A stretch of 64,000 nt of DNA from an uncultured Paludibacter sp. (GTDB lineage: Bacteria > Bacteroidota > Bacteroidia > Bacteroidales > Paludibacteraceae). Shown piece after piece: positions 3,784 through 22,483 of the stretch. Position numbers and translations under genes: made by a program. The notes beneath the pieces are model-generated. The model worked only from the letters and a program-made list of their open reading frames with translations. It had not been told where the DNA came from and did not search any database. Every line of letters starts with the position of its first letter. Position 1 is the stretch's first letter. The DNA is taken from NCBI GenBank assembly GCA_964390175.1, contig CAYMHE010000002.1:13930-77929 (forward strand). The letters are read 5' to 3'.

Positions 3784-4407
3784 ATGAAAAACAAAACCGA
3801 TCAAAATATGGAACAGGCAATACTTGAAGCAGCAGAACACTTGTTTCTAGAAAAAGGGTATGCCGCCACTTCAACCACTCAAATTGCCAAAGCTGTGGGC
3901 TGTAATCAGGCCCTTGTACATTATTATTTCAGGACGAAGGACAATTTATTCAATACGATATTCGAAAGCAAATTCAAATTGTTTTTTAAAAATATATTTG
4001 ACACAACGCAACTTGCGAGCATGAGTTTTCAACAGAAAATAAAGCACATAGTGGAAGCTCATTTTGATTTATTGATGCAAAACCCCAGATTGCCAATACT
4101 AATTTTGAACGAGTTATCCCGTAGGCCAGAACAATTGAACACACTGCGCGAAAAACTACACGACATACCTGAACAATTATTTACAATTATGAACCAGGAA
4201 CTGGAAACCGAGATTGCTGCCGGACGTGTCAAAGAACTAAGCTATATAGACATTGTAATAACAATTGTTTCGTTGAATGTGGCCTTATTCTCAATGTTGC
4301 CTATAGCATCCGAACTTATTAAACTCAGTAAAGAACAACGAAATTTACTACTGGTTCATCGGCGTTCCGAGAACGTAGACATTGTTCTAAGCTATATTCG
4401 TCCGTAA
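3784..4407 (+). CDS. TetR/AcrR family transcriptional regulator
   Basis: ILEAAEHLFLEKGYAATSTTQIAKAVGCNQALVHYYFRTKDNLF HTH; divergent from the acyl-CoA dehydrogenase; start 3769, 3784 or 3808. Confidence 0.92.
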   Translation: MKNKTDQNMEQAILEAAEHLFLEKGYAATSTTQIAKAVGCNQALVHYYFRTKDNLFNTIFESKFKLFFKNIFDTTQLASMSFQQKIKHIVEAHFDLLMQNPRLPILILNELSRRPEQLNTLREKLHDIPEQLFTIMNQELETEIAAGRVKELSYIDIVITIVSLNVALFSMLPIASELIKLSKEQRNLLLVHRRSENVDIVLSYIRP

Positions 4408-5966: not shown

Positions 5967-5980
5967 AACAAACGTTTGCA
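5967..5980. promoter_or_regulatory. Candidate operator AACAAACGTTTGCA (12/14 match to TGCAAACGTTTGCA)
   Basis: Same palindrome recurs at 10564 and 20412 upstream of functionally related genes. Confidence 0.6.
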
Positions 5981-6041
5981 TAAGTTTAATTAACAAAGTT
6001 CATTAATTTTCTTTATTGAGAAATATTTAAATTAATCTCAA

Positions 6042-7259
6042 ATGACAAAAAAAACAGAATATCCGCTCGTTCAAATAATACTTTTGTTTGTTTTTTTACT
6101 GTTCGGACAGTTCAAAAGCTTCGCCAACGATTCTATTAATATCACGGCAGTCCGAACTAAAATTGAAGCTCAGTTAGATTCATTTAACCTACAATCGGAT
6201 GGAAAATCAGCAATAAAGGCGAACATCAATGAAAAGCAGCAAACTCAACTTATCGGAACAACCAATCGCCCGAAAGACTTCTTAACCCTGAAAGAAAGTT
6301 GGAGGAAAAGAAAAATTGAATTTACCGACAGTGTGCGCCTTCAATCAAATCCGGCTTTGGGAGATAAAGTATACGGACTCATCAATGTTTCGGTGGCGAA
6401 CCTTCGCTCCGAACCTCTGCACTCCGCCGAACTTTCGACACAGGCACTTTTAGGGACACCCATCAATATACTCGACAAAAAGAACAACTGGCTGCTGGTG
6501 CAAACTCCCGACAACTATGTTTCGTGGACAGAGGAAAGCACAGTAACCATTCTGAACCGACAAGAGATAAACAAGTGGATGGATGCCCGAAAAATAGTGT
6601 ACTACCAAAACTATGGTAGCAGCTACGAAAAAGCCGACACAAGATCTCAAACCATTTCGGATGTTGTGATTTGCAATATTTTCGAGTACATATCAGAAAA
6701 CAGAAATTTCATAAATGTAATGTACCCCGACAAAAGAGTGGCTTTTTTAAAGAAAACCGACTGTATCGACTACAGTAAATGGATCAACTTACCGAATCCA
6801 ACTCCAGCGGACATAATCAAAACAGCAAAAACATTTACAGGAATTCCTTACCTTTGGGGAGGAACATCCTCAAAAGGACTTGATTGCTCGGGCTTTACAA
6901 AACTCACATTTCTTATTTACGGCGTTATCATACAGCGCGATGCATCACAGCAAGCCAACTATGGATTTATTTCAAACGCTACAACTTTCGACAAACTACA
7001 ACCAGGCAACCTACTGTTTTTTGGCAGAAAAGATAAAGACACAGACAAGGTCTCCATCACACACGTGGCCATTTACACACACAACAACGAATATATTCAT
7101 GCTTCGGGAATGGTGAGTTACAACAGTTTCGACAGCAATTCACCCATTTTCAGCCCCTACCGTGCCAACTCGTTTACAAAGGCAAGCGACTATGTTTCGG
7201 CAATAGGCACTGCAAACATTACGAAAGTGAAAAACAGTATTTTTTACAACAAACACTAA
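6042..7259 (+). CDS. ykfC: SH3 + NlpC/P60 peptidase, YkfC-like gamma-D-Glu-diamino acid endopeptidase, exported
   Basis: N-terminal signal peptide; VSVANLRSEP..ELSTQALLG SH3b region; PYLWGG..GLDCSGF, RDASQQ and ITHVAIY catalytic motifs. Confidence 0.85.
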   Translation: MTKKTEYPLVQIILLFVFLLFGQFKSFANDSINITAVRTKIEAQLDSFNLQSDGKSAIKANINEKQQTQLIGTTNRPKDFLTLKESWRKRKIEFTDSVRLQSNPALGDKVYGLINVSVANLRSEPLHSAELSTQALLGTPINILDKKNNWLLVQTPDNYVSWTEESTVTILNRQEINKWMDARKIVYYQNYGSSYEKADTRSQTISDVVICNIFEYISENRNFINVMYPDKRVAFLKKTDCIDYSKWINLPNPTPADIIKTAKTFTGIPYLWGGTSSKGLDCSGFTKLTFLIYGVIIQRDASQQANYGFISNATTFDKLQPGNLLFFGRKDKDTDKVSITHVAIYTHNNEYIHASGMVSYNSFDSNSPIFSPYRANSFTKASDYVSAIGTANITKVKNSIFYNKH

Positions 7260-7281
7260 CATCATCTCAAATTATACAGTT

Positions 7282-8421
7282 ATGACTACAAATCGACGGG
7301 ATTTTCTGAAAATATCCGGACTTACACTGGGTTTATCCTTCATTGACACAAAATCGGCTGCAGCTCCGCTTATAAATTGTTTCGGTTCAAAAAAAACGCA
7401 AAAAATGAAACTATCATTCCAACTCTATAACTTAATGCTGAAACACACATTTACCGTGGCCAGCAATTCACGCACAACAACGCCTGTAGTATTAACCCAA
7501 ATTGAGTACGATGGCATCATTGGGTACGGAGAAGCATCAATGCCTCCCTACCTTGGCGAAACGCAGGCATCGGTCACAAAGTTTCTTTCAAAAGTCGACT
7601 TGTCGTCCTTTAACGATCCGTTTCAGCTGGATGAAATTCTGGCTTACATTGATGGAATTGAAGAAAAGAACACAGCCGCCAAAGCCGCCATCGACATTGC
7701 CCTGCACGATCTGACAGGCAAAATACTAAATCAGCCCATCCACAGAATATGGGGACTTTCGAAAAAAAACACGCCCAACACCTCATTCACAATAGGTATC
7801 GACACACCGGAAATTATAAAAGAGAAAACCCTTGAAGCCGGAAATCAATACAAAATATTAAAAGTAAAACTCGGGCGCAACAACGACAAGGAGATTATAG
7901 AAACCATACGCTCGGTGACCGACACGCCGCTTTGCGTAGACGTAAACCAGGGCTGGACCGACAAGAAAATGGCACTGGACATGATTTACTGGCTGAAAGA
8001 AAAAAATATAGTTTTCGTAGAACAACCCATGAGCAAAGAAAACATGGAAGATATGGCCTGGCTTACCCAACACAGTCCTCTGCCTGTCATAGCCGACGAA
8101 GCCGTTCAGCGACTTGCCGACGTAAAACATTTATACCAGGTTTATTCGGGCATTAACGTAAAACTAATGAAATGCGGAGGCATGCGCGAAGCTCACAAAA
8201 TGATAGAACTTGCACATGCACTGAATATGAAAACAATGATAGGCTGCATGACCGAGACATCCTGCGCTGTTTCAGCAGCTGCTCAACTATCGCCACTCAC
8301 TGATTGGGCCGATTTGGATGGCAACTTACTCATTACAAACGACGTATTTGAAGGCATCAAAATAATCAACGGAAAAGTCACCCTTAATGACAGACCGGGA
8401 ATAGGGATTAGAAAAGTTTAA
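7282..8421 (+). CDS. ykfB: L-Ala-D/L-Glu dipeptide epimerase (enolase superfamily) with Tat signal
   Basis: NRRDFLK twin-arginine motif; KVK, DVNQGW, EQP, ADE, KLMKCGG and DLDG motifs; follows the ykfC-like gene. Confidence 0.88.
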   Translation: MTTNRRDFLKISGLTLGLSFIDTKSAAAPLINCFGSKKTQKMKLSFQLYNLMLKHTFTVASNSRTTTPVVLTQIEYDGIIGYGEASMPPYLGETQASVTKFLSKVDLSSFNDPFQLDEILAYIDGIEEKNTAAKAAIDIALHDLTGKILNQPIHRIWGLSKKNTPNTSFTIGIDTPEIIKEKTLEAGNQYKILKVKLGRNNDKEIIETIRSVTDTPLCVDVNQGWTDKKMALDMIYWLKEKNIVFVEQPMSKENMEDMAWLTQHSPLPVIADEAVQRLADVKHLYQVYSGINVKLMKCGGMREAHKMIELAHALNMKTMIGCMTETSCAVSAAAQLSPLTDWADLDGNLLITNDVFEGIKIINGKVTLNDRPGIGIRKV

Positions 8422-8432
8422 CAGGATGATCA

Positions 8433-8622
8433 GGCAGACAGCTTAAAAGATCAGACTTCAACAGTTCAGGAGTTTTACCCCTCTCCACCCGACTCCTTAT
8501 GGGCACAACGATGTTTTATGTTTACTGTCTGCCACTTCGGGAGCTGCTATGTTTCCTGTTCTACTGCAGTCCCTCCCTTACATAGCCTTTTCATCACGGG
8601 ATGATTCAAAGTCACCCTGTGA
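8433..8622 (-). ncRNA. Candidate structured RNA / structured 3' tail downstream of the orphan gene
   Basis: Nested inverted repeats 8433-8441/8525-8533, 8444-8452/8510-8518, 8468-8473/8492-8497, 8546-8552/8580-8586, 8594-8600/8615-8622; GC-rich relative to other spacers; strand inferred. Confidence 0.35.
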
Positions 8623-8659
8623 AGATCGTCAGCACATCACCCTAAAAACACCAACGGCA

Positions 8660-9325
8660 TTAACCCGCTATTGTGGCACTTACAGTAACACTCCACGGTC
8701 CGGCTTCGCCACGCATATTTACCCAACGCAACCAGTAATACACCGTTTTACCAACCTTATTTCCATCAAATTTCATAACACAGGGACTAGCGGTGTTGGT
8801 AGCAACATAAATTAACTCCGAAACATCTTTAGGTGCTTCACCATCCACTTTCATGAAAATTTCGCACCCATGTACGCCGGCCGGTTTTGCATTGCTGTGG
8901 GCCGAGGCTTCGTCGTAATAACTAATGGAATGTTGCAAGCGCATCGAAAAATCAACAATCCCCACGGGACTTGTAGCAGGCACGGGAGTTGGCGTGCGTG
9001 TTCCGGTTTTTACAGTAAGCCCCATACGCGTGCGGTCGGCATCAGTTACTTTTGAGTTGTAGGCCAACCATTGCGATACAAAGCCACGGATTATTCTTTT
9101 ATACTGCCTGTTGGCTTCGTCTTTAGTAGCCACATCGGCCGAAGTGCGGTTTAGTTTGTTACTCGCCTTCGCATAAGCGATTTGCCACACTCTTTGCCCT
9201 GATTTTAGCGCTGCAAAATCGTCGGCATTAATACTCCAGGCGATTAGATTTGGCTCAATAATCGCTACTAAGTTTCCCTGCCATACATTAAAGTCGGCAT
9301 CGTTTTTCGAAATGTAGTCTGACAT
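8660..9325 (-). CDS. Hypothetical cytoplasmic protein: helical N-terminal domain, Pro/Thr linker, FN3-like C-terminal domain
   Basis: 221-aa ORF; TPTPVPATSP linker; C-terminal VYYWLRWVNMRGEAGPWS resembles the FN3 terminal strands; no signal peptide. Confidence 0.75.
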   Translation of the reverse strand: MSDYISKNDADFNVWQGNLVAIIEPNLIAWSINADDFAALKSGQRVWQIAYAKASNKLNRTSADVATKDEANRQYKRIIRGFVSQWLAYNSKVTDADRTRMGLTVKTGTRTPTPVPATSPVGIVDFSMRLQHSISYYDEASAHSNAKPAGVHGCEIFMKVDGEAPKDVSELIYVATNTASPCVMKFDGNKVGKTVYYWLRWVNMRGEAGPWSVTVSATIAG

Positions 9326-9430
9326 AATTTTAAGTTTTTAAATTAAACTTGATTTCTATTATTTCATATCTTATTGGTTATAAAACGTCTGTATTTAAAT
9401 TACTTTTCCTATCAACTTCATAATTTAAAA

Positions 9431-9682
9431 ATTTCTCCCGGGGCGGAAGCTTTTTCTCTCGGGGAAAAAACTTTTTCTCTCAGGAAAAATTTATTTTCTC
9501 TCGGGGGAAAAACCTTTTCTCTCAGGAGAAAAATGATCTCTCTCAAGGGAAAATCTTTTTCTTTTTGGACGGAAGCTTTTTCTCTAAAGAGAATGTCATT
9601 TTCTCTCAGGGGAAATTCTTTTTCTCTCAGGGAAAAAACTTTCTCTCCTAAAGTAGAATATTTCCGTCCTAAGGAAATTTTT
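9431..9682. repeat. Tandem array of 12 x 21-bp degenerate quasi-palindromic units (TTTTCTCTC-xGG-GAAAA-nnn)
   Basis: Units start at 9431, 9452, 9473, 9494, 9515, 9536, 9557, 9578, 9599, 9620, 9641 and 9662 with no indels. Confidence 0.9.
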
Positions 9683-9770
9683 CCATTCCTGACATAGCTT
9701 ATTGAATTGACCCTCTATTAGGAAAGCTGGATCAACTGACAATAATATTTCTGTATCAACATTTTCGGTT

Positions 9771-9827
9771 CAAATCTATAAATATAGATTGAGAAAAATG
9801 TCGCGTTTTTAAAAATGCGACATTTTT
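9771..9827 (-). promoter_or_regulatory. Minus-strand -7 box (TAGATTTG) overlapped by an 18-bp palindrome and next to a 34-bp near-perfect palindrome
   Basis: CAAATCTA 9771-9778; AATCTATA-AA-TATAGATT 9773-9790; AAAAATGTCGCGTTTTTAAAAATGCGACATTTTT 9794-9827. Confidence 0.5.
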
Positions 9828-10549
9828 GTTGAAAAGGGACAAAAATAAAGCTAAGTGAAAGGATCTGTTTTCAATATGTATATATATTTATAATTTTGAT
9901 TATGTGCAACTTAAAAATGGAGTGTGTGCCACCATAAGGCACAATAAATTCAATGTTAATGTTTGTGAATAGGGAATGCTTACAGGTGTTGTTTTGTATT
10001 TTATTTTTACGAATACGCGTTTTGCTCGCTGTATAAATATCAATAAATATTAGCTTATGTGGATTATAAAAGCAATTGACTATCAAAGGCACACTGGGCG
10101 TACAAAAACAGAAAACAAAAAACTTAAACTATGTATTGTCTGCCTTTTCAAGGAAACAAAAACCATGTTTATATTTCTTAAATAAAATTGCGTGCCTTAT
10201 GTGCCTTTTGTTGTGCTTTTCCACAATTAAATAAAACAAAAGATAATCATAAAATTTAAGCAATTTAAACACAACAATAAATAGTAAAAAACAAATCGCT
10301 TACATAAAGCCATCAACTGCTTTCAAAATTTAAATTATAGATTCTATAACAAATATGCATGTATTAGCTCCTTTACAAGCACTATTTTCACACTAAGCAA
10401 GCCACATTAACGCATTAAAACATTATTTAAATGAAAAAATACAGCATAACACCACCCCAAACAGAAACTCAAACATGCAAATTCATAATAAGTTATAAAA
10501 TGACAGCAAAAAAATAGAATCATTTTACATTTATTTAAAAAATATTATT

Positions 10550-10577
10550 TACATTTGTCGCGCTGCAAACGTTTGCA
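10550..10577 (+). promoter_or_regulatory. Promoter -7 box TACATTTG followed by operator TGCAAACGTTTGCA
   Basis: TAnnTTTG at 10550-10557; perfect 14-bp palindrome at 10564-10577 near the expected transcription start. Confidence 0.7.
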
Positions 10578-11120
10578 ACTTTAGTCAAAATGCATAAATT
10601 CTAAAGAACGATTAGCAAACATAAAAGAATGAAAGGCGAACAAACACTTTACACATTGCAGATGTAAGTTGAGGATAGCTTCCCTAAAGAGCTATTCAAT
10701 TTTCAATAACTATCAGTTGAGACAATTCTTGAAATAAATCATCTCAAAGATTTCTGTCGACAATGGCAAATAAACTTATTATAAGAACTAAATATCGTTA
10801 CCAACACAAGGGCTCTTTATGAAAACAACATACAGCATGAAGCAACTAACAAAATGCAAAGACCTGATAAACAAACATCATGTCGACAGCAATTTGTCTA
10901 CAAGCTACATATTTCAATAACAAAATATTAACATCACCCAACTCCGTTCATTTCTTGCTTCGCCATCAACAGATACAAAACAAGTTTTAACCGGACAACA
11001 GACACAATAAAACAAAAAAACCAACTTATACAATTTGAATTTAAGATGTGGACGCCTCAAGTCTTAAATTTTTTAATGAAGGCGCAATCAATCATTCATT
11101 TTATTTACAATTCCAAAGTT

Positions 11121-14100
11121 ATGATTAAAACAATTCGGGAAAAATGGATGCGTTTGGGTATAATACTCATAATGATGTTATTCACCATCACAGGAGCTTA
11201 TGCACAAAGCAAAGTAATTAAAGGTAAAGTAATTGACCAAAGCAAACAGCCAATCATTGGTGCCGCTGTGAAAATTATCGGCACTTCAAGTGGTACAATT
11301 ACAGATGTAGATGGGAATTTCGTTATCAATGCGACTCCCAAAAACATCATTTCAATCTCTTATATGGGATACAAACCCATCGAAGAAACTATTGGCGAAA
11401 GAACTATTATCAATGTCACAATGCAGGAAGATGCAAAAATGCTTCAGGAAACAGTTGTAACTGCCGAATTTGGCGTAAAAAGAATCGGCCGTTCCATTGG
11501 TGGTGCCGTTCAAAACATCAAAGGTTCGGACATTGCAGAATCAGGACGCGAAAACTTTATCAACTCACTCCAGGGAAGGGTTGCCGGTGTTAACATCACT
11601 GCCTCTTCCGGCTCTCCGGGAGCATCTTCTACTGTTGTGTTCAGAGCACCTACTTCAATTTCAGGCAACAACAGCCCTCTTTATGTCATCGACGGGATAC
11701 CAATGAGCAACAGCACATTTGACATGAACAGCCAGTGGGCTAAAGCACCTTCAACTGCCACCGTGGGAATGCAAAATGACTTTACGAACCGCGGTTCAGA
11801 CATCGACCCAAACAACATTGAAAGTATAAATGTATTGAAAGGCGCAACTGCTGCTGCATTATACGGCTCAGATGCTTCCAATGGAGCAATTATAATTACC
11901 ACAAAAAAAGGAAAATCGGGAAAAGCCAAGATGTCATATAACAACATGGTGAAGTACGATGTAGTAAACAGATATCCTGAAATTCAGACAATTTACGATC
12001 AGGGAAATTATGGGAGCACCAATTATTATAACACAGGAAAATGGGGGGCACCATACGCTCAGGGAACAAAGTTATACAACAACTTATCCGAACTTTTCCA
12101 AACAGGAGTAAGCCAACAACACAATCTTGTTTTCGATGCCGGTAATGATATAATGACAATACGCGCCTCGGCAAGCATACTTGATCAAACAGGTATCGTT
12201 CCGGTTGCTGGCTACAAACGCAAAAACCTTTCGGTTTCAGGTACAATAAAAGCAGCAAAGTGGATTAATCTGAGCGCTTCGATGCAATACATTAACAGCA
12301 CAAACAATAAAGTTGCAAAAGGCACCGGTGGAGTTTTAGACTTAGCAATGAAATGGCCATTGACTGATAACATGTCAAATTTCCTGGCTGAAGATGGAAC
12401 ATCTATTAAATATCCTGACAGATACGGAGATATTGATATTCTGAATCCATACTTTGACATCTACAGAAATAAACGGCAAGATGCTACTGATCGTTTCATT
12501 TCAACAATGAATGTAGCCCTTACACCGCTAGAAGGACTTGAAATAAGGGCTTTGGCAGGTTGGGATTTATCGTCAAGTACATATATAACATCTATAAATC
12601 CTCAATTTACAACTTCTAAAATAAAAAGCGGAAGCTACGATCAGTCCAATGTAGTGGAATCAAACCCAACATTGAACCTTATTGCTACGTATTCGAAAAA
12701 AATAGCCAAGTTCGATGTTTCATTACAGGGTGGATACAACCAATCAGAAACAGGGTCGAAAACTTTAGCCGTACACGGAGAAAATTTCTATGTTCAGGAT
12801 TTTCAATCAATTAATAACTGCGATCCATTGACAATTGTAAATTTACAAGCAACAAGAATACGCAGAGTTCAGGCTTTGTTTGGCTCATTTATGGCATCTT
12901 ACGACAATCTTTTGTTTTTAACCCTGAGAGGAAGAAACGATTGGTCGTCGACATTGCCAATTGAAAACAGATCGTATTTTTATCCTGCTGCCGACTTTAG
13001 CTTCATTCTATCAGATCTTCCATTCATGAAGAAACACGCTGACACATGGAGTTACGTAAAACTCAGAGGATCGGTAGCTCAGGTAGGTAAAGATGCACCT
13101 CCATTGTCTATTCAGCCTGCACTTCTATTGCAAACAACCACTGCAGCAGGATATGCTTATGGATTTACCGGACCGAACAAAAACTTAAAACCTGAAATTG
13201 ATCAGGCATGGGAGGTTGGTATCGAAGGACGATTGTTCGACAACAGATTGAATTTTGACCTGGCCTACTATAGCACCGAATCAAAAGATCAAATTATCAC
13301 AGGATTCCGCATGTCCTATGCAACAGGATTTATACTCAACAACAGAAACATGGGATCTTTCAAAACCAACGGAGCTGAATTCCTGGTTTCATATGACATT
13401 GTAAGAAGCAACGATTTACTCGTCAACATTGGCATAAACGGAAGTAAAAACTGGAGCGAAGTTCTGTCATTACCTCCGGGTGTTACAGAATATTATAATT
13501 CGGCAACCTGGGTTTCAGGAAACCTCAGAAACGGAATTATGGTGGGAAGTCCAATCACAACAATTACCGGACTCGACTATCAGCGCAATGACAATGGACA
13601 AATACTTGTTGACCCAACAAGCGGTTTGCCTTTGGTAAATAGCAAATGGTCGGTACTCGGCGACAGAGAACCTGAATTTTCGTACGGCTTCACAGGTAAG
13701 GCAATCTACAAGAACATTACATTCTCCTTCTTAATGAACGGAAAAGTAGGCACTCAGGTAGTAAACGGAACAAAAAGAGTAATGTTTGCCAATGGCTCGA
13801 GCATGGAATCTGTTGCTCAAAGAAGTTTAGGTGCAATTGTATTCAATGGCGTATTAAAAGATGGTCTTGAAAACAGCTCCAAACCAACACCGAACAATAT
13901 AGCTACAAAATTGAGCGACTTAGCAACCGGTTATGCCGGAGCCGATCCTGATTGGATTGAAAAAGACATAAATTATCTGAATCTATCAGAAGTAAGACTT
14001 TCGTATAACTTCGAAAAAGAATTATTACGAAAACTTACCGGCAATCTGATTTCATCTCTAACTGTTTATGCTGCAGGCACCGACCTATTCTTACTTACAA

Positions 14101-14231
14101 ACTACTCAGGCCTCGATCCTATTGGGAATGCAACATCTTCGGCCGTAGGAGGAACTGGTGGTGTAGGTTTCGACATGTTAAGCATAGGATCGCCAAGAGG
14201 ATTCTCATGTGGATTAAACGTTACTTTTTAA
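11121..14231 (+). CDS. susC: SusC/RagA family TonB-dependent outer membrane transporter
   Basis: Signal peptide, N-terminal CarboxypepD-like domain, PLYVIDG, DIDPNNIESINVLKGATAAALYGSDASNGAIIITTKKG, C-terminal F; start 11121 or 11148. Confidence 0.95.
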   Translation: MIKTIREKWMRLGIILIMMLFTITGAYAQSKVIKGKVIDQSKQPIIGAAVKIIGTSSGTITDVDGNFVINATPKNIISISYMGYKPIEETIGERTIINVTMQEDAKMLQETVVTAEFGVKRIGRSIGGAVQNIKGSDIAESGRENFINSLQGRVAGVNITASSGSPGASSTVVFRAPTSISGNNSPLYVIDGIPMSNSTFDMNSQWAKAPSTATVGMQNDFTNRGSDIDPNNIESINVLKGATAAALYGSDASNGAIIITTKKGKSGKAKMSYNNMVKYDVVNRYPEIQTIYDQGNYGSTNYYNTGKWGAPYAQGTKLYNNLSELFQTGVSQQHNLVFDAGNDIMTIRASASILDQTGIVPVAGYKRKNLSVSGTIKAAKWINLSASMQYINSTNNKVAKGTGGVLDLAMKWPLTDNMSNFLAEDGTSIKYPDRYGDIDILNPYFDIYRNKRQDATDRFISTMNVALTPLEGLEIRALAGWDLSSSTYITSINPQFTTSKIKSGSYDQSNVVESNPTLNLIATYSKKIAKFDVSLQGGYNQSETGSKTLAVHGENFYVQDFQSINNCDPLTIVNLQATRIRRVQALFGSFMASYDNLLFLTLRGRNDWSSTLPIENRSYFYPAADFSFILSDLPFMKKHADTWSYVKLRGSVAQVGKDAPPLSIQPALLLQTTTAAGYAYGFTGPNKNLKPEIDQAWEVGIEGRLFDNRLNFDLAYYSTESKDQIITGFRMSYATGFILNNRNMGSFKTNGAEFLVSYDIVRSNDLLVNIGINGSKNWSEVLSLPPGVTEYYNSATWVSGNLRNGIMVGSPITTITGLDYQRNDNGQILVDPTSGLPLVNSKWSVLGDREPEFSYGFTGKAIYKNITFSFLMNGKVGTQVVNGTKRVMFANGSSMESVAQRSLGAIVFNGVLKDGLENSSKPTPNNIATKLSDLATGYAGADPDWIEKDINYLNLSEVRLSYNFEKELLRKLTGNLISSLTVYAAGTDLFLLTNYSGLDPIGNATSSAVGGTGGVGFDMLSIGSPRGFSCGLNVTF

Positions 14232-14242
14232 TTTTTGAAAAT

Positions 14243-16051
14243 ATGAAAAAGAAAATAATATCATTTATAGCAATAATATCAATCATATTTTTTGCTGCTT
14301 CATGCGACGAATACTTAGATGTCAACAACAATGTTGACACGCCTGATTGGGTGCAACCGAACTTAAGATTAGCTCCTATTCTGTCCGGATTTGTTTCTAA
14401 TTACTACGATGTAAGAATCGTTGCACCAATGTGCCAATACTTTAACGGAACATCTGTTCCTGCCGCCACCTATGGCGCAAAAATGTATTATGCACCCGCT
14501 AGCGATTATGCAGAAACATGGAAAATGGTTTACTGGGAATGGGGACAAAACCTCGAAGACATGATCAACGATGGAAAATCCCTGAATCAACCTCTTTATG
14601 CCGGCATCGGTTTAGCAATAAAAGCCTATGGATGGCATCAATTATCTTCAATACATGGCGAGGCACCTTGTAAACAGTTTTTAGACCCGGGACGAACAGT
14701 ATTCGAGTATGATTCTCAGGAATATATATTCAACCAGACAAGAAACTGGGCAAAAGAAGCCATAGAGATATTAAGCAAACCAGATGCAACTGTATATCCG
14801 GCTTCATTGGCGACAAATGACCTTATGTACAAAGGCGACAGAAGCAAATGGTTGAAATTCGCCTACGGTGTATTGGCTAAAAATTATATGACTATTTCAG
14901 CGAAAAATCCGGCATATCTCGACTCGGCAATAATAGCAGTCAACAACTCAATGACAAGCGCTTCAGACGATGCAACAGTTATGGTTGCAGGTGGAACTGT
15001 ATCGGCTCAGGTCAACTTCTTTGGAGTTATGAGAGCTAATTTATCTACCCTTCTGAATCAATCAGACTACATGGTAGACCTGATGACCGGGAAGGTAAAA
15101 TATTATGACCCCAACACCGGTAACACTGTAACAAACAATGGTGTAGTACAATTGATGGATAAACAATATATCACAGATACATTGACTTTGGATCCAAGAG
15201 CAATCTGTTTCTTTGGAACAAAGGATACAATGCCAAATGATTTATCAACCATCAACACAAAAACATATAAATTCACAGGCACATTACCAGGTCAGGCAAG
15301 CCAGGGAACATTGTTCGGAACAACATCTGCACCCAGCGTAGCCACTTCAGGTACAGGCCGTTGGATTTTCAGAGACAATGCACCATATATCGTTATGACT
15401 TACTCGGAACTATTGTTTATTAAAGCTGAGGCGCAATATCGGAAAAATCTGACAGCGGATGCGTTGGCAACCTTTAAGGATGCTGTAGCTGCAAGTATGA
15501 AGACTACTTCTACTTACATTGTTCAGGGCACCCCGGTAAAAACAAATGGTAAACAAACATCAGTAATAGGCGACAAAATAAGCGCATCCGTATTCAACTC
15601 CCTATCCGATAGCTACCTGAACAGCAAATATGTAAATAATCTTTCTCTTAACGACTTTGAATTATCACATATTATGATGCAAAAGTATGTAGCCTTGTTC
15701 CCCTGGGGATTAGACACCTGGAATGATTTACGTCGTTATCATTATGATTTAAAAACAGGATCAAAAGGCATTCCAGAAGATGGAACTTCATGGTCAGTCA
15801 ACAGATCGTTTCATAAAGCTGATACTGATGCAGGCAGAATTTATAAAGGATTCTATCTTCCATCAGCCGATGTTACCAATAGAAGATCTTCCTTTGAAAG
15901 CACTAATTTAGGCTCGCCATCTTACCGTATAAGACCCCGGTATAATTCGGAATACATATGGAACTTAACAGCCCTGGAGTCACTTAAGCCTATTTCGGGC
16001 ATAGACGCAAATTACAACACATCAATGATGTGGTTCTGTTTACCTCAATAA
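14243..16051 (+). CDS. susD: SusD/RagB family nutrient-binding lipoprotein
   Basis: Lipobox FAASC; YLDVNNN; YSELLFIKAEA and IMMQKYVAL..WNDLRR motifs; follows susC. Confidence 0.92.
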   Translation: MKKKIISFIAIISIIFFAASCDEYLDVNNNVDTPDWVQPNLRLAPILSGFVSNYYDVRIVAPMCQYFNGTSVPAATYGAKMYYAPASDYAETWKMVYWEWGQNLEDMINDGKSLNQPLYAGIGLAIKAYGWHQLSSIHGEAPCKQFLDPGRTVFEYDSQEYIFNQTRNWAKEAIEILSKPDATVYPASLATNDLMYKGDRSKWLKFAYGVLAKNYMTISAKNPAYLDSAIIAVNNSMTSASDDATVMVAGGTVSAQVNFFGVMRANLSTLLNQSDYMVDLMTGKVKYYDPNTGNTVTNNGVVQLMDKQYITDTLTLDPRAICFFGTKDTMPNDLSTINTKTYKFTGTLPGQASQGTLFGTTSAPSVATSGTGRWIFRDNAPYIVMTYSELLFIKAEAQYRKNLTADALATFKDAVAASMKTTSTYIVQGTPVKTNGKQTSVIGDKISASVFNSLSDSYLNSKYVNNLSLNDFELSHIMMQKYVALFPWGLDTWNDLRRYHYDLKTGSKGIPEDGTSWSVNRSFHKADTDAGRIYKGFYLPSADVTNRRSSFESTNLGSPSYRIRPRYNSEYIWNLTALESLKPISGIDANYNTSMMWFCLPQ

Positions 16052-16073
16052 TAACTAATAATTATTTCACTTT

Positions 16074-16928
16074 ATGAAAAAGATATATTTTATAGTTTTA
16101 GCTATATTTGGCATGTTGATTACTTCCTGCCAAACCAATGAGATAACATTCCCATTTGAAGAGCTGAATACTGATCAGTTTTCGGAGATCAGACTTATAA
16201 ACGCTATACCTGTTACCGGAAGCAGCGACTCTTTGGTTATCAACGGAAACAGATATTCATCAGTAGCCACCTCATTAGGAAGTTACTACCCGGCATCTGC
16301 TGCCAAATATTTTGCTCTGCCGGTTGGCGACAACAGTGTATCGCTGCGCTTCTTAGCGAAAACTACCGCTCCTACTGTTGATGCATTTACTTATTCTGCT
16401 AGCATTAAAACAACAAAAGGCAAATGGTCAGCTTATATTTATGATAAAACCAAAAGCCCTGTTTTACTGCAAGATGCAGAATCAGTACCAACTACAGATG
16501 CATGGAAAGATACGGTATGTTTCATTCGGTTTGTAAACTTTTTCCACAAATCGGATGGGGTAACTCCATTCGGGAAAATAACATTGAAAGCAAAAAAGAA
16601 CCTTACCGGCGCAGCATGGGAAACCATAGCCACGGATATTGATTTTGGAACTCAATCTTCAGAGTATTTTATCTACAAACTGAAGAATGTAACAAATCTA
16701 AACCCATGGTCGGGTGCGGAGGCAAGTGTCACTATTGGTTTTTTTGATAGTGCTGGAAATCAATATCAACAGTTTTCGTCGGCAACTGCTTCTACAAAAT
16801 CGGCCTACTCAAGTACAGGATGGAGCTTTGCAAAAGGTAGGGCTTATGTCATCTATATTAATGGCAAAGAAGGATCTACAAACAATAAAGATCAATTTAT
16901 TCGGCTGGGGTCATTTCAAACTAAATAA
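16074..16928 (+). CDS. PUL-associated surface lipoprotein (DUF4397-like beta-sandwich repeats)
   Basis: Lipobox LITSC; two repeats of IRL/FVN-type strands; third gene of the susCD operon. Confidence 0.65.
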   Translation: MKKIYFIVLAIFGMLITSCQTNEITFPFEELNTDQFSEIRLINAIPVTGSSDSLVINGNRYSSVATSLGSYYPASAAKYFALPVGDNSVSLRFLAKTTAPTVDAFTYSASIKTTKGKWSAYIYDKTKSPVLLQDAESVPTTDAWKDTVCFIRFVNFFHKSDGVTPFGKITLKAKKNLTGAAWETIATDIDFGTQSSEYFIYKLKNVTNLNPWSGAEASVTIGFFDSAGNQYQQFSSATASTKSAYSSTGWSFAKGRAYVIYINGKEGSTNNKDQFIRLGSFQTK

Positions 16929-16950
16929 ACTCGGCTGAACAAGCAACTTT

Positions 16951-17038
16951 ACAACCACTTAAAATTCAATTTTTTATTGAACAATCATTGATAAATTTCA
17001 ATGAAATAAAATGGAAAATTGAATTTTTAAGTGGTTGT
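16951..17038. terminator. Long imperfect hairpin between convergent genes (probable bidirectional terminator)
   Basis: ACAACCACTTAAAATTCAATTTT ... AAAATTGAATTTTTAAGTGGTTGT arms. Confidence 0.6.
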
Positions 17039-17194
17039 TTTTTCAATAAAAATCATTCTTAATACTGCAACGATCAACTCTTAAACATTTACAAAATGCA
17101 AGCAGACAGTTGAAAACAAGCTACTGAACCACCCATAAAAAATGCCGACAAAAGCCGGCATTTGTTGGAATAAAGCAATGACTAAACAACACAA

Positions 17195-17698
17195 TTACTT
17201 TTTTTCCAATTCAAGTTCGAGATATGGATACACAGGATTGTGGAAACCTACCGAACGGTATAGTTTTTCGCCGGCAACGGTAGTATGCAAAGCAAGCTTG
17301 GCAACTCCCTGCTGTTGAGCCTCATCAATCAACCGAAGCAGAAGCATTTTAGAAATCCCCCGACGTCTTGCTTCTGGTACAGTATACATATTCAATACAT
17401 CGCCTTCAACATAAGCAGCGCTGTTGAAATCGCCGGGAACAGAACGTAGCACAACGGCTCCATAAGCAACAGCCTTACCACCAAACACTGCAACCAATGC
17501 AATTACACTTCCATTTTGAATGCCTGAAGTGAAATATCGGGTGAGTTCACTCGTCAACGCTTTCACTACAGCTGCTGGTCTTTCACCCTGTAATTCTGCA
17601 AGATATTGAATCCGGCAGGCTATCATCGCTTCTACATCGCTTGTCCCTACGCGGGTTATTATAATTTTATCCAGATCAATATTCATAGTCAGCAGCAA
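17195..17698 (-). CDS. GNAT family N-acetyltransferase
   Basis: NMYTVPEARRRGIS motif A; LYRSVGF. Confidence 0.88.
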   Translation of the reverse strand: MLLTMNIDLDKIIITRVGTSDVEAMIACRIQYLAELQGERPAAVVKALTSELTRYFTSGIQNGSVIALVAVFGGKAVAYGAVVLRSVPGDFNSAAYVEGDVLNMYTVPEARRRGISKMLLLRLIDEAQQQGVAKLALHTTVAGEKLYRSVGFHNPVYPYLELELEKK

Positions 17699-17702
17699 TG
17701 TA

Positions 17703-18569
17703 TTAATACGGGCGTGCTACAACAATTCCGGTAGCAGATTTAGCAGCCTTGAGATAATCTTCCAATGTTTCATCCGAAACCAGTACTTTCATGTATTTCT
17801 GACTGGCATGAAGCATATGAATTCTTCCATTTTTTCGGAAAGCCAACACCACATGCTGAATATCAAGCCCCTGGATATTGGTAGTAATACCCAATATATC
17901 ACCATCTTTCAACTGATCTTCTATGGCAGCAATTTTACTCTCCGGAACGAAGCATTGTTTTCTTTTCGAAATCTCAACTTCCTGTGTTGCTATTACTTCA
18001 ATATACTTTCGGTTATTTCTTAGCTGAGTGTATTTTTCGGAATGCGTGCTCATAAAATCAACATTGAAATTAGTATTAGCCGTATTTAATTCGCAACTTA
18101 TACTTTTCACTATCTCTTTTTGCTCATTGTTATAAATCCAGTCGCTGAAATAATGCAAACGGGAGCTGTAATCAGTTAATTTTTTATTTCTATACCTTAT
18201 ACTCCTTAATTCATTCACGAAAGTAGCGAAATTCGGAGTTGCTGACTGAGCTGTACGAGCCAGGGCTAAACAATTTTCGGCAAAAGTAGTACAATCAAGC
18301 GCTCGCAGGTTAATAATCAGCTTTTCTGCTGCTCCACCATCTAAAGTATTTGCAACGTAGGGCGTTCCCACCAGCATTTTTCCGCCTGCAATGATCAGAT
18401 CACCTGTCGATAAAGTGGTTTTATTCTTGAGAGTTCCGAGAATATTTTCGACAATCAGGCTATCCTTTTTGTCAAAAGAAACAACACTTCTGCCATTCTG
18501 AGCTTCGGTTTTAAGATAAAAGCTCAACAGAAATGCAGTTAGAGAAATTAACAGAAATGATTGTTTCAT
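17703..18569 (-). CDS. N-acetylmuramoyl-L-alanine amidase-like protein (DUF1460/AmiA-type, NlpC/P60 fold), exported
   Basis: Signal peptide; GTPYVANTLD, LDCTTF, RLHYFSDW, GLDIQHV and HAS motifs. Confidence 0.85.
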   Translation of the reverse strand: MKQSFLLISLTAFLLSFYLKTEAQNGRSVVSFDKKDSLIVENILGTLKNKTTLSTGDLIIAGGKMLVGTPYVANTLDGGAAEKLIINLRALDCTTFAENCLALARTAQSATPNFATFVNELRSIRYRNKKLTDYSSRLHYFSDWIYNNEQKEIVKSISCELNTANTNFNVDFMSTHSEKYTQLRNNRKYIEVIATQEVEISKRKQCFVPESKIAAIEDQLKDGDILGITTNIQGLDIQHVVLAFRKNGRIHMLHASQKYMKVLVSDETLEDYLKAAKSATGIVVARPY

Positions 18570-18588
18570 TGTGCAAAAAATTTAATCC

Positions 18589-19413
18589 TTATTTATTATG
18601 CTGTAATTTAAAAGCATCCACCGCTTTTTTTACCGAGCCCTGAATAAGCAGGATATTTTTAGCATGTTCGTAATCAATCCCAAGCTCTTCCACTATCATT
18701 CGGGCGCCACGGTCCACAAGCTTTGCATTCGACAACTGCATATTCACCATTTTATTCCCTTTTACGCGTCCGAGTTTAATCATCGTAATGGTGGTTATCA
18801 TATTCAATATCAACTTCTGAGCAGTCCCGGATTTAAGGCGGGTACTTCCAGTTACAAACTCCGGTCCCACAATGGCTTCGATTTTAATCTCAGCTTCCTG
18901 AGCAATAGGTGAATCCGGATTACAAGAAACTGAAGCAGTAAGGATACCATTGGCACGTGCATTGCGTAAAGCGCCAATCACATACGGTGTTGTACCCGAA
19001 GCTGCTATCCCTATTACAGTATCGTTCTGATTTATATTTCTTTCCTGCAATTCCTGCCATCCTTTTTCAATATCATCTTCGGCATTTTCCACCGGATTAC
19101 GCAAAGCTGTTTCACCTCCGGCAATTAAACCTACTACCAAACTCGAAGGCATTCCAAAGGTTGGTGGAATTTCGGACGCATCTAGCACACCTAAACGGCC
19201 ACTGGTACCAGCTCCCAAATAAAAAATCCTACCTCCACGCTTCATTCTCTCTACTATTTTCTCGACAAGTTCTTCTATTTGTGGTAAGGCTCTTGAAACA
19301 GCCAAAGGAACTTTCATGTCCTCTTCGTTCATTTCGATCAACAAATCATGCACCGATTTTTTATCTAAATTTTCGTGTAGTGAATTTTGCTCTGTAATTT
19401 TTTGAAATGCCAT
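18589..19413 (-). CDS. murQ: N-acetylmuramic acid 6-phosphate etherase
   Basis: GAGTSGRLGVLDASEIPPTF, GIAASGTTPYV, VGPEFVTGSTRLKSGTAQK. Confidence 0.96.
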   Translation of the reverse strand: MAFQKITEQNSLHENLDKKSVHDLLIEMNEEDMKVPLAVSRALPQIEELVEKIVERMKRGGRIFYLGAGTSGRLGVLDASEIPPTFGMPSSLVVGLIAGGETALRNPVENAEDDIEKGWQELQERNINQNDTVIGIAASGTTPYVIGALRNARANGILTASVSCNPDSPIAQEAEIKIEAIVGPEFVTGSTRLKSGTAQKLILNMITTITMIKLGRVKGNKMVNMQLSNAKLVDRGARMIVEELGIDYEHAKNILLIQGSVKKAVDAFKLQHNK

Positions 19414-19470
19414 ATGTTCTGATTTTGATTATTTTATTTATTGATGTCAACTTTCCGAAAAATAGAAATA

Positions 19471-20313
19471 CTATTGCTGACGTGCATGATATTTTATCAA
19501 GCCCTGCATTGGACTTTTCATAATACTACCAACAGTAACGCCGCAATCGGCCGCCGCTTCAAGCAATATCTCTTCAAAATGAAATGCTACCGAACCTACA
19601 AAAGAAGTTTTCATTGACTGAAAATTGTATTGCATTACGTTTCTTTTGAAAAAAGTCACGAATCCGTTGTATACAATATCCCGAATCGCAGGTTCGGAAA
19701 TATTTTCGCTGAGGAAAGGAGTAAAGGCTGCAAGATACCGATTCGGAAATGGTTTTTTATATACATTTTCGAGTACTACAGCCGGGGTGAGTTCGTATTT
19801 ATCCATAAAAACTTTTCTCAATTCGGCAGGAATCTGATTTTTCAAACAATCGGCCATAAAAGTTTTTGACAGTACCGCACCACTTCCTTCATCTCCCAGA
19901 ATAAAACCCAAAGGAGAAACATTGTCCACTATTTCGGAACCATCGTAGTAGCACGAATTCGATCCGGTACCCAAAATACAGGCTATCCCATTTTCGGTTC
20001 CACACAGAGCACGCGCAGCCGCCAGTAAATCGCTCTGCACTTCGATGGGAATGTGTTTAAAGTAAAAACCGAGGGCATTGCAAACGATTGCTTTTTTGTC
20101 GGGAAAAGAACAACCGGCGCCATAAAAGCAGATCGAACTGATGGGCAAGTCGCCTAATTCGGGCAACAAAAAGCATTCTATCTCAGACTTAATTTCACTC
20201 TCGGTCTGATAAAACGGATTGATCCCTTTAGTGAAAATTTGCTTTACCACCCCGGAATTTTCAACTACAAGCCACTCTGTTTTGGTGGATCCACTGTCTA
20301 CAATTAACTGCAT
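19471..20313 (-). CDS. BadF/BadG-type N-acetylglucosamine/N-acetylmuramate kinase (MurK-like)
   Basis: DSGSTKTEW, FYGAGC, ILGTGSN and LGDEGSG motifs; directly upstream of murQ; true start MQLIVD at 20313. Confidence 0.85.
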   Translation of the reverse strand: MQLIVDSGSTKTEWLVVENSGVVKQIFTKGINPFYQTESEIKSEIECFLLPELGDLPISSICFYGAGCSFPDKKAIVCNALGFYFKHIPIEVQSDLLAAARALCGTENGIACILGTGSNSCYYDGSEIVDNVSPLGFILGDEGSGAVLSKTFMADCLKNQIPAELRKVFMDKYELTPAVVLENVYKKPFPNRYLAAFTPFLSENISEPAIRDIVYNGFVTFFKRNVMQYNFQSMKTSFVGSVAFHFEEILLEAAADCGVTVGSIMKSPMQGLIKYHARQQ

Positions 20314-20411
20314 AAACACTCTATTCTTATTAATATGTCTTTTTTCAAAGTGCAAAATAACGCAAAAGGTTTCACCTAACCAAGGGAAAACAGAAAAATT
20401 TGAGTTTTCGG

Positions 20412-20461
20412 TGCAAACGTTTGCATTAAATTTGAAAAATCCGATTTTTTTTGTAATTTTG
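20412..20461 (+). promoter_or_regulatory. Operator TGCAAACGTTTGCA and promoter TTTG-N19-TAATTTTG in the kinase / nagB-like divergent region
   Basis: Palindrome 20412-20425; -33 TTTG 20431-20434; -7 box 20454-20461. Confidence 0.7.
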
Positions 20462-20500: not shown

Positions 20501-22483
20501 ATGAGAACAAATTTAAGCTCGCAAATAACGCTGACACGTATATCGAAAAGATATTATCAGCCCGATGATGTATTTGAACTCTCACGCGTTACCCGATTCG
20601 AAAAAGTAGCAACCGAAATATTCGAAAACGAAAAAGATGGTTCATTAAAAATTGCCGAAGAAATCGCCGAACTTATCAAATCAAAACAGGCTACTGGTGA
20701 AAATTGCATTTTAGGACTTACAAACGGGAAATCGACAGTAGGCATCTACAACGAACTGATCCGTTTGCACAAGAAAGCAGAACTCAGTTTTAAAAACGTC
20801 ATCGTATTTAATCTTTTCGAATACTACCCACTGAACAATACAACGAAAAGCTGTCTGGCACAAATGCACGAAATGCTTTTCGACCACATAGACATTCCGG
20901 CTGAAAACATTTACTCCCCCGATGGTATGCTCGATAAATCGGAAATCATGGGAGCTTGCAAAAGCTACGAACAAAAGATTGCCGATTTTGGAGGAATTGA
21001 CTTGCAAATACTGGGCATTGGTCGCTCGGGAAACATTGGTTTTAACGAACCAGGATCGCAGGCCAATTCGGGCACAAGGTTAATTCTGCTCGATAATATC
21101 TCGCGAAAAGATGCCGCCGAACTCTTCGGAAGCGTGGAGTCAGTTCCTATCAGCGCCATTACACTGGGTGTAGGTACTATTCTCAAAGCAAAAAAAATCA
21201 TTCTTGCTGCCTGGGGCGAACACAAAACATCAGTCATTAAAAGCGCAGTGGAAGGAGCGGTTTCGGAACACACACCGGCATCCTACCTACAGCTGCACTC
21301 CAACGTGAAAATGGTAATCGATCTGCATGCAGCAGGCGAACTTACCCGCATCAGTCGCCCATGGTCGGTGACTTCGTGCGATTGGGACGATAAACTCATC
21401 CGCCGCGCCATTGTTTGGCTTTGCATGAAGGTAAACAAACCTATTCTGAAACTCACCAACAAAGATTATAACGAAAATGGGTTGAGCGAATTATTGGCAC
21501 TCTACGGATCGGCCTATAATGTAAATATAAAAATTTTCAATGATTTGCAGCACACAATTACAGGATGGCCCGGAGGCAAGCCCAACGCCGACGATAGCAA
21601 CCGCCCTGAACGTGCATTGCCATTTCCAAAAAAAGTATTAATTTTCAGCCCGCATCCCGACGATGACGTTATATCAATGGGCGGTACGTTCAAAAGACTT
21701 ATCGACCAGAACCACGATGTGCATGTCGCTTATCAGACTTCAGGTAACATTGCCGTTGCCGACGATGAAGTAATACGCTTCCTTGCCTTCCTGAAAGGAT
21801 TCAAAAACATATACGACTCAGAAAATGAAGTACTTGAAAACAAATACAACGAATTCAGAACTTTCATTCTTCAGGATAAAAAAGAAGGAGATTCCGATAC
21901 GCGTGAAATTCTCGATCTGAAAGCATTGATCCGTCGTGGCGAAGCCAAAGCCGCATGTCGCTACATTGGCTTGCCATCGAAGAATATTCATTTTCTGAAT
22001 CTTCCGTTCTACGAAACAGGATCTGTAAAAAAATCACCTATCAGTCAGGCAGATGTGGACATAGTAAAAGCGCTGCTCGAAGAGCTGAAACCGCACCAGA
22101 TATATGTAGCAGGTGATCTTGCCGATCCGCACGGGACTCATAAAGTTTGTCTGGACGCCATTTTGGCCGCCATCGACGAAATGAAAGATGAAGCATGGAT
22201 GAAGGATTGCCGTGTATGGATGTATCGTGGCGCCTGGAAAGAATGGGAAATTGACCACATCGAAATGGCAGTTCCAATCAGCCCTGAAGAGTTACGCAAT
22301 AAACGCAACGCCATTCTTCGCCACCAATCCCAAATGGAAAGTGCACCTTACATGGGGAACGATGAAAGACTTTTCTGGCAGCGTTCAGAAGACCGCAACA
22401 GAGCCACTGCCGAATTGTATTCTCAATTAGGACTGGCCTCGTACGAAGCTATAGAAGCATTTGTTCAATACATTCCGGTTTAA
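20501..22483 (+). CDS. Glucosamine-6-phosphate deaminase-like domain (degenerate active site) fused to a PIG-L/LmbE deacetylase
   Basis: NagB fold with FNLFEY and GRSGNIGFNEPG; C-terminal SPHPDDD and DPHGTH metal motifs. Confidence 0.88.
   Translation: MRTNLSSQITLTRISKRYYQPDDVFELSRVTRFEKVATEIFENEKDGSLKIAEEIAELIKSKQATGENCILGLTNGKSTVGIYNELIRLHKKAELSFKNVIVFNLFEYYPLNNTTKSCLAQMHEMLFDHIDIPAENIYSPDGMLDKSEIMGACKSYEQKIADFGGIDLQILGIGRSGNIGFNEPGSQANSGTRLILLDNISRKDAAELFGSVESVPISAITLGVGTILKAKKIILAAWGEHKTSVIKSAVEGAVSEHTPASYLQLHSNVKMVIDLHAAGELTRISRPWSVTSCDWDDKLIRRAIVWLCMKVNKPILKLTNKDYNENGLSELLALYGSAYNVNIKIFNDLQHTITGWPGGKPNADDSNRPERALPFPKKVLIFSPHPDDDVISMGGTFKRLIDQNHDVHVAYQTSGNIAVADDEVIRFLAFLKGFKNIYDSENEVLENKYNEFRTFILQDKKEGDSDTREILDLKALIRRGEAKAACRYIGLPSKNIHFLNLPFYETGSVKKSPISQADVDIVKALLEELKPHQIYVAGDLADPHGTHKVCLDAILAAIDEMKDEAWMKDCRVWMYRGAWKEWEIDHIEMAVPISPEELRNKRNAILRHQSQMESAPYMGNDERLFWQRSEDRNRATAELYSQLGLASYEAIEAFVQYIPV

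Follow-up and report, generated by a model that had tools for sequence, protein, structure and literature searches.

A shared operator suggests that a starch-locus LacI regulator also controls peptidoglycan scavenging in part of Paludibacter

We analysed a stretch of 64,000 nucleotides (nt) from an uncultured Paludibacter sp. (G000:C2:13930-77929; hereafter the window), in which a 14-nt palindrome, here called the operator, stands before three units of peptidoglycan-salvage genes: ykfC-ykfB, a susC-led operon, and the kinase-murQ-amiA and nagBA region. The source genome, G000, is a 2.87 Mb assembly that is 92% complete; the other G codes and the L codes denote compared genomes and loci. The same motif occurs at both cell-wall and alpha-glucan genes, its copies fall into two position classes that do not overlap, and near-complete relatives have only two LacI genes. 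These data suggest that, in part of Paludibacter, a maltose-responsive, dual LacI-family regulator turns on alpha-glucan use and holds down peptidoglycan scavenging, a reading drawn from sequence to which we give a probability of roughly 0.6.

One Operator Precedes Two Gene Sets

The palindrome is a real, conserved DNA site. The three copies described in the original prediction were all recovered, two of them perfect and one matching at 12 of 14 positions, along with a fourth (12/14) that it had not mentioned. These copies and the predicted promoter boxes near them are as follows.

5967-5980, no strand: weak operator copy, 12/14, 61 nt 5' of ykfC; no canonical -7 box found
10550-10557, plus strand: predicted -7 box of the susC operon
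10564-10577, no strand: perfect operator in a repressor position, spanning +3 to +16 of the predicted susC transcript
20079-20092, no strand: 12/14 copy within the kinase gene, the best-scoring in-gene match of G000
20353-20360, minus strand: predicted -7-like box of the kinase promoter, ending 73 nt from the operator start
20412-20425, no strand: perfect operator, at -54 to -41 relative to the predicted nagBA start site
20431-20434 and 20454-20461, plus strand: predicted -33 and -7 boxes of the nagBA promoter

Two perfect copies in the window compare with 0.0003 expected, and three in the genome with 0.012; intergenic copies with at most two mismatches number 13, against a mean of 1.4 (maximum 5) for 60 shuffled palindromes of the same composition. 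At up to three mismatches the matches in the window are at chance level (7 vs 6.4), and the case for the ykfC copy is therefore its conservation, with an identical sequence in G005 and stronger versions 5' of ykfC in G002 and G023. Its 14-mer is also identical to the copy 5' of a GH97 gene. The proposed resemblance to LacI-family operators holds (an even palindrome with a central CG and a G at position 6 from the centre), as does the placement of the susC copy downstream of a -7 box, a -7-type box (TACATTTG) lying 6 nt before the operator. The position of the operator differs in each of the three window units. Very close relatives retain the in-gene kinase copy, which lies 333 nt from the main operator and may serve as an auxiliary operator or reflect chance. 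A search of window positions 4000-33000 against Rfam matched nothing.

Beyond the window, the third perfect copy in G000 precedes namZ (C156), and near copies precede genes for glycogen phosphorylase, two GH77 proteins, GH13, GH97 and a sugar MFS transporter. A copy with three mismatches lies between a divergent LacI gene and a starch susC (G000:C36), at a locus that also carries MFS, GH65, GH13 and susD/E/F genes, and perfect copies were also found at GH13 pairs. A matrix was built from 20 starch-regulon sites in 12 genomes that lack the kinase-promoter site; its training sites were chosen for likeness to the palindrome, making the test independent in target genes and not in motif. With this matrix, the two perfect window copies and the namZ copy tie for first in G000, and the top 11 intergenic matches comprise four cell-wall and seven alpha-glucan or sugar-MFS promoters. 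These 11 predicted sites serve alpha-glucan and cell-wall operons alike and would count as a global LacI regulon, for which more than 15 genes, at least seven operons and more than one pathway are required (PMC4052901). Further cell-wall targets in relatives include other susCD pairs, amiA and a secreted Amidase_3 operon.

The original prediction envisaged a dedicated cell-wall regulon that senses N-acetylglucosamine 6-phosphate or N-acetylmuramic acid (MurNAc) 6-phosphate. This part is not supported, as the same site precedes seven starch/glycogen or sugar-transport promoters, the starch-gene sites are kept in relatives without the kinase-promoter site, and the site tracks the starch-locus LacI. 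Two observations had been named as telling against that regulon, namely occurrence of the motif genome-wide before unrelated catabolic genes and a failure of the three units to be co-induced; the site is indeed found genome-wide before alpha-glucan genes, and the different operator positions in the three units leave their joint induction a conjecture.

A Starch-Locus LacI Is the Candidate Regulator

None of the 43 open reading frames scanned in the window encodes a LacI protein, as had been noted, and the supposition that the regulator is encoded elsewhere is borne out by a LacI candidate in the starch locus at G000:C36. Its gene is divergent from starch susCD-susE/F and upstream of the sugar MFS and GH65 genes, a layout of the OsuR/MalR type, and the protein combines a helix-turn-helix (HTH) with a sugar-binding domain and has the site at its own locus, as a cognate LacI should. 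Of 24 genus genomes, 16 have an orthologue (at least 74% identity). Among the 15 orthologues with upstream DNA, 14 have the site no more than 500 nt upstream and the fifteenth has it at about 910 nt; it is also upstream in five of seven LacI homologues from other families. The regulator of the Parabacteroides distasonis locus is 62% identical to it. CcpA and PurR are among its best PDB matches, and it falls below all named NCBIfam cut-offs. Its PSTVSR recognition helix fits the rule by which an arginine reads the G at position 6 (PMC2978694).

G000 has one other LacI gene. Two LacI HTHs each were likewise found in G005, G728, G726 and G671 (98-100% complete), all of which have cell-wall sites. 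The second LacI, with recognition helix EGTVDR in place of PSTVSR, is a uxaC-linked uronate regulator. At G000:C45 (L029:5460-5552), an imperfect palindrome of another kind occurs twice between this uronate LacI and uxaC and is a candidate for its operator.

The degenerate motif has 7-17 copies in 13 genomes (at least 90% complete) with the regulator versus 1-5 in four without it; three incomplete genomes (69-76%) without a regulator match have 10-15, and G008 (87%) has six. Among the dedicated amino-sugar repressors (MurR/RpiR, the ROK proteins NagC/NanR and the GntR protein NagR) none emerged, other regulator families not all having been searched: PF01418 (RpiR) had no match in five of five genomes, the ROK matches in G000 and G005 are a glucokinase-sized protein and a weak kinase match, and the GntR matches there lie in unrelated contexts, as judged by inspection. 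One regulator, the starch-locus LacI, most likely serves both gene sets.

Some further observations bear on the regulator. The regulator gene in G000 and its adjacent MFS gene (L030:4785-5324) are split by N runs; these are assembly gaps and no sign of a broken gene, and the G005 copy is whole. A changed ligand pocket in the regulators of genomes with cell-wall sites was not apparent, the comparison yielding only two weak positions and no consistent substitution. Within the window, a TetR gene (3769-4407) adjoins an acyl-CoA dehydrogenase gene, and a 122-residue HTH-like frame (26849-27217) is not at the equivalent place in G023; both were rejected as regulators.

Operator Position Separates Alpha-Glucan from Cell-Wall Promoters

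Spacing was measured from the end of a T[A/T]nnTTTG box to the operator start, with 13 other-family loci excluded, and start sites were inferred from the consensus by setting the -7 box at -12 to -5 (PMC9723704). Of 42 alpha-glucan promoter rows, 36 have a spacing of 75-77 nt (background 0.008). This spacing holds in the majority of rows for eight of nine alpha-glucan families, whose spacers are not conserved, and it recurred in alpha-glucan promoters fetched later (10/11, then 10/10); no cell-wall row shows it (0/47). Starch susC lies at 76-77 in G151, G124 and G667, all from other Bacteroidales, as well as in P. distasonis and Prevotella sp. oral taxon 299, and genes with this spacing that had carried no label included GH57, GH13 and an X25 pullulanase-domain protein. 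The alpha-glucan operators are thus centred near -73.5 on the inferred start sites. A centre at -73.5 is typical of upstream activators such as class I CRP, and this activator position very probably means that the alpha-glucan genes are activated.

The cell-wall operators lie elsewhere. At the window susC the operator spans predicted positions +3 to +16, and at namZ about +5 to +18, covering the start site in both; lac O1 likewise covers its start site. Repression of these two promoters is in all likelihood the outcome, and the window susC copy does occupy the repressor position that had been claimed for it. At susC paralogues and the secreted amidase operon the distance is 39-40, with the operator over the -33 box and, at five loci, beside a perfect Cur-like box. 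At nagBA or GT2 it is 50-51, just upstream of -33, with a centre at -47.5 for nagBA. The kinase promoter has a distance of 73, 71 or 62, with kinase-murQ centres at -70.5 or -59.5. Our sign call covers the window susC, namZ, the susC paralogues and the secreted amidase operon; nagBA, kinase-murQ and ykfC stand outside it. In P. distasonis and G124 the operator is at +40 in the regulator's own promoter and at +76/77 at susC, a layout that predicts autorepression beside activation.

A perfect Cur/BT4338-like box stands 17 nt before the operator (26 nt at amiA) at L009, L013, L083, L089, L235 and L072, that is, at five cell-wall susC promoters and amiA in relatives. This pairing would resemble the activator-plus-repressor layout of lac. 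No perfect Cur-like box was found at the window sites, nor any Cur-like box beside the 42 alpha-glucan sites.

Cell-Wall Sites Are Patchy across Relatives

Alpha-glucan sites are kept in G001, G019 and G024, all without the kinase-promoter site. That site occurs in nine of 23 genus relatives, all nine with the regulator; it is missing from seven others with the regulator and from all seven without a match. The namZ site is perfect in all seven first-sample relatives that have namZ. Close nagBA orthologues have a near-perfect site in 22 of 24 cases, or 23 if a gene inserted in G726 is skipped, and distant homologues have one in none of six, and the operator stays with nagBA or GT2 even where the kinase is missing (G712, G713). 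Outside the genus, no intergenic site was found within 1.5 kb of namZ at any of 29 loci, where namZ is mostly internal to an operon, so that this negative carries no weight; none was found upstream of the kinase at seven of seven other-family loci, and none at nagBA in three more distant records. More distant class-level homologues often have a site near the regulator, mostly without the 75-77 spacing.

Two simpler accounts of this pattern were rejected. Origin of the cell-wall sites in a single subclade is not borne out by a FastTree RpoB tree of 24 rows (without G007, G012, G016 and G019, which had no RpoB match), on which they require five changes, and 40 of 500 shuffles gave as few. Nor does a lack of sites reflect a lack of nagBA, a homologue, of the close or distant group, being found in 71 of 102 genus genomes.

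A Proposed Mechanism and Points That Weigh against It

In the mechanism we favour, maltose or maltodextrin would enter through the MFS transporter of the starch locus and cause the regulator to bind DNA by PurR/CcpA-type allostery; the ligand-bound form is probably the one that binds. At about -73.5 it would recruit RNA polymerase at starch susC, GH13, GH57, GH77, GH97 and glgP. The same binding would block cell-wall genes, either at the start site (window susC, namZ) or at the -33 box (susC paralogues, secreted amidase operon). When alpha-glucan is exhausted, the regulator would leave the DNA and the cell-wall genes would open, some apparently with help from a starvation activator of the Cur/BT4338 type, its box adjoining the operator. 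Peptidoglycan fragments would then enter through SusCD, be cleaved by the amidase, NamZ and YkfC/YkfB, and pass to MurK, MurQ and NagBA. The net order would be starch before dead bacterial walls. The sequences show gene content, a shared motif and spacing; DNA binding, ligand, start sites and the sign of regulation are what we infer.

A number of observations sit poorly with this mechanism. Seven of the 16 regulator-bearing genus genomes have no kinase-promoter site; at the orthologous susC, G000 and G023 have a clear operator, G009 a degenerate one and G688 none; and G729, where starch sites accompany a fragment of the regulator gene, has no site at nagBA. The kinase promoter (73 or 62) and the genus regulator promoter (74) lie near the activator position, a poor fit to pure repression of cell-wall genes. 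The MFS promoter fits 75-77 in only one of five rows, with one later miss, and several 75-77 targets have no known family, some of them beside GH30. The -33 box is missing from alpha-glucan promoters (0/36), as would suit activation, and with a genome baseline of 13% this lack does not reach significance (P = 0.28, nine families). The 75-77 window and the relaxed box pattern were fixed only after the first spacing results, and the spacing rows stem from kin and so are not independent. Most LacI proteins, finally, bind DNA without a ligand (PMC4052901).

Alternative Explanations

The same regulator might instead be a plain maltose-released repressor everywhere, with maltodextrin from lysed cells co-inducing both gene sets as a regulon for dead-cell food. 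MalR of Streptococcus pneumoniae represses at a nearly identical operator (PMC4451989), and bacterial alpha-glucan is a necromass signal that induces alpha-glucan polysaccharide utilization loci (PULs) in marine Flavobacteriia, peptidoglycan going unmentioned in the part of the source cited (PMC11093988). The susC stretch of the window is matched in wastewater and sludge runs, and the near-activator position shared by the kinase and regulator promoters means that position may not give sign. Against this, the operators do not overlap the maltose-gene promoters as those of a MalR-type repressor would, being centred at about -73.5 in 36 of 42 rows on inferred start sites, and a lone site there cannot directly block polymerase. 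Repression, moreover, needs no spacing fixed to 1 nt across eight unrelated gene families with unconserved spacers, and anti-activation would lack a visible partner, given the missing Cur-like boxes. We regard this explanation as unlikely. Slightly less likely again is a Cra-like dual regulator that binds ligand-free, keeps alpha-glucan genes on by default until a metabolite derived from glucose or an amino sugar releases it and opens the cell-wall genes. It fits the same geometry, retains part of the earlier idea of an amino-sugar inducer and follows the usual LacI allostery, of which Cra and PckR are dual examples (PMC4052901). It is weakened by the lack of a consistent substitution between regulators of genomes with and without cell-wall sites, and by the regulator's place beside sugar MFS and GH65 genes in genomes where no cell-wall site was found, a setting that suggests a maltose-type ligand.

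A separate, dedicated cell-wall-salvage repressor with a look-alike site, sensing an amino-sugar phosphate as in the original prediction, could draw on the mostly perfect cell-wall copies beside many degenerate starch copies, on the patchy spread of cell-wall sites over the RpoB tree, such as might be expected of a module that has a regulator to itself, and on a source genome that is 92% complete. We consider it improbable: the four near-complete relatives with the same sites have two LacI HTHs only, perfect copies also stand at GH13 pairs, ykfC and GH97 share an identical weak copy, and no RpiR or ROK repressor was found, though not all regulator families were searched. It is very improbable that the palindrome is chance or a side effect of the TTTGC with which Bacteroidota promoter boxes end. 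Its right half does resemble the end of a -7 box and can itself act as a -33 box (the +39 class), and window matches at three mismatches are at chance level; yet the palindrome has no TA of the -7 box, is conserved while its flanks diverge, far exceeds shuffled controls and thins where the regulator was not found.

Gene Content of the Window and of Related Loci

The peptidoglycan-salvage labels given earlier to the window genes are upheld by Pfam, NCBIfam and PDB matches, on which the labels below rest.

6042-7259, plus strand: ykfC-like stem-peptide peptidase (NlpC/P60 and SH3; PDB dipeptidyl-peptidase VI, 3pvq)
7282-8421, plus strand: ykfB-like dipeptide epimerase (enolase superfamily, below equivalog cut-offs)
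11046-14231, plus strand: SusC-type TonB-dependent transporter (TIGR04056; likely start 11121)
14207-16051, plus strand: SusD-like lipoprotein
16074-16928, plus strand: lipoprotein, third gene of the susCD unit, without Pfam or NCBIfam family
17195-17686, minus strand: GNAT acetyltransferase, last gene of the kinase-murQ-amiA unit
17703-18569, minus strand: AmiA-like MurNAc-L-Ala amidase
18589-19413, minus strand: MurQ etherase
19471-20313, minus strand: MurK-like kinase for MurNAc/N-acetylglucosamine (PDB 8oqw/8ow9)
20501-22483, plus strand: NagB-like deaminase fused to a PIG-L deacetylase domain (PRK02122)
22535-23989, plus strand: GT2 protein after nagBA
25619-26515, plus strand: DUF4922 protein, a member of the cluster, downstream and conserved
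28373-31728, plus strand: SpoIID/LytB-domain protein and AmpG-like MFS protein (below cut-off), same cluster, no own operator

With tandem susC/susD and enzymes for one glycan, these genes have the make-up of a peptidoglycan PUL, and the window SusC is a candidate importer of peptidoglycan fragments. Close orthologues of the window SusD occur in five of 102 genus genomes, in all five adjoining ykfB/ykfC, amiA, namZ-like or ampG genes; its PDB matches are distant and name no ligand. At two loci where nagBA does not precede it, the GT2 gene lies directly under the operator. Behind ykfB, with the same operator, a different susCD pair is found in the close relatives G005 (L339:7445-12000), G728 (L410) and G002 (L297). 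Cell-wall loci with this operator are divided among at least three different SusC groups, a variety that suggests cassette swapping.

Some neighbouring features deserve record. Between ykfB and the susC promoter lie a 221-residue frame without Pfam or NCBIfam family (8660-9325, minus strand) and a 21-nt tandem repeat (9410-9661), which has one extra unit in one RNA-run contig; the stretch 8660-9661 is not present there in G023, G005 or G728. The predicted susC leader (10578-11120) is about 550 nt long, compared with about 210 nt in G023, and has no Rfam match. A umuD/umuC-like pair at 39709-41420 (Peptidase_S24 and an IMS-family polymerase) appears ordinary. In G728, G671 and G726 (L409, L412, L415), an operator-led operon encoding, by N-terminal likeness, a PD40 protein and a secreted Amidase_3 protein, together with a third protein, adjoins orthologues of window 46486-47487; window 46088-46486 has none of the PD40 and Amidase_3 genes seen in those genomes. 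The namZ gene (L062:2274-7110 in G005; L019, G000:C156) is divergent from methylglyoxal synthase and is followed by an FAD-linked oxidase/4Fe-4S protein, which could oxidize the D-lactate released by MurQ. Several secreted proteins without a known family, some adjoining GH30, have the operator at 75-77 (L017, L078, L349, L169, L180, L301, L314) and are candidate new alpha-glucan-binding or -cleaving proteins.

Relation to Known Systems and Significance

By analogy, the regulator is probably of a kind already known, resembling OsuR of the Bacteroides fragilis osuABCD starch operon, which is said to be a LacI-family, maltose-dependent activator of a starch susC operon. We know of no operator sequence, fixed -73.5 position or repression of peptidoglycan genes described for OsuR. 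The sus loci of B. fragilis and B. uniformis combine LacI, MFS and GH65 without SusR (PMC11633381), a locus type that G000:C36 shares. SusR of B. thetaiotaomicron is likewise a maltose-sensing starch activator, but it is a membrane sensor of another family; Cur/BT4338, from the same sources, has its counterpart here in the Cur-like box that abuts the operator at cell-wall promoters of relatives (PMC3878776, PMC6989115). The LacI regulons given for B. thetaiotaomicron in PMC3878776 are all uronate regulons, and the core motif does not occur as text in its supplements, where logos are images.

Outside the Bacteroidota, MalR of S. pneumoniae is similar in being a LacI-family regulator of a maltose/alpha-glucan regulon with footprinted operators (CGCAAACGTTTTCC, CGCAAACGTTTGCGT); it differs as a maltose-released repressor of a single pathway, whereas the geometry here predicts activation together with repression of a second pathway, and Lactococcus lactis MalR is cited as an activator (PMC4451989). 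Cra/FruR, CcpA and PckR are comparable as local regulators that widened to several pathways, with one site whose effect is predicted by position, but they act on central metabolism, and none is given for Bacteroidota in the portion of PMC4052901 used. For the salvage genes themselves, Tannerella forsythia MurT-MurK-MurQ also places a MurK-like kinase beside MurQ for exogenous MurNAc, with no operator or regulator described in the part of PMC5790795 cited. The window, unlike T. forsythia, joins salvage genes to SusCD, YkfC/YkfB, AmiA and NagBA under a starch-regulator site. A literature search, with most subscription papers outside its scope, returned no report of the operator in Bacteroidales or of starch control of peptidoglycan genes; the operator, its spacing rule and its reach into peptidoglycan scavenging were thus not found in print.

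We tentatively propose, at somewhat under even odds, that a starch-sensing LacI activator was co-opted as a catabolite repressor of peptidoglycan feeding, so that one operator (activation from -73.5, repression at the core promoter) ranks the two chief sugar sources in dead bacteria, glycogen before cell wall. In that case the repressed targets, at least three distinct groups of SusCD together with secreted amidases, would form a Bacteroidota system dedicated to peptidoglycan utilization, and the 75-77 spacing would be a usable rule for recognizing an activated Bacteroidales promoter. To our knowledge, Bacteroidales have no CcpA-type system, and little has been established about how they set priorities among glycans. 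If true, our reading would supply a concrete case in which the regulator of one PUL silences a second. It also singles out SusCD pairs that may import peptidoglycan fragments, which bears on the recycling of dead bacterial biomass in sludge and sediments, and it predicts an operator and a working distance for the starch regulator of tractable gut genera: Parabacteroides, Prevotella and probably Bacteroides fragilis.

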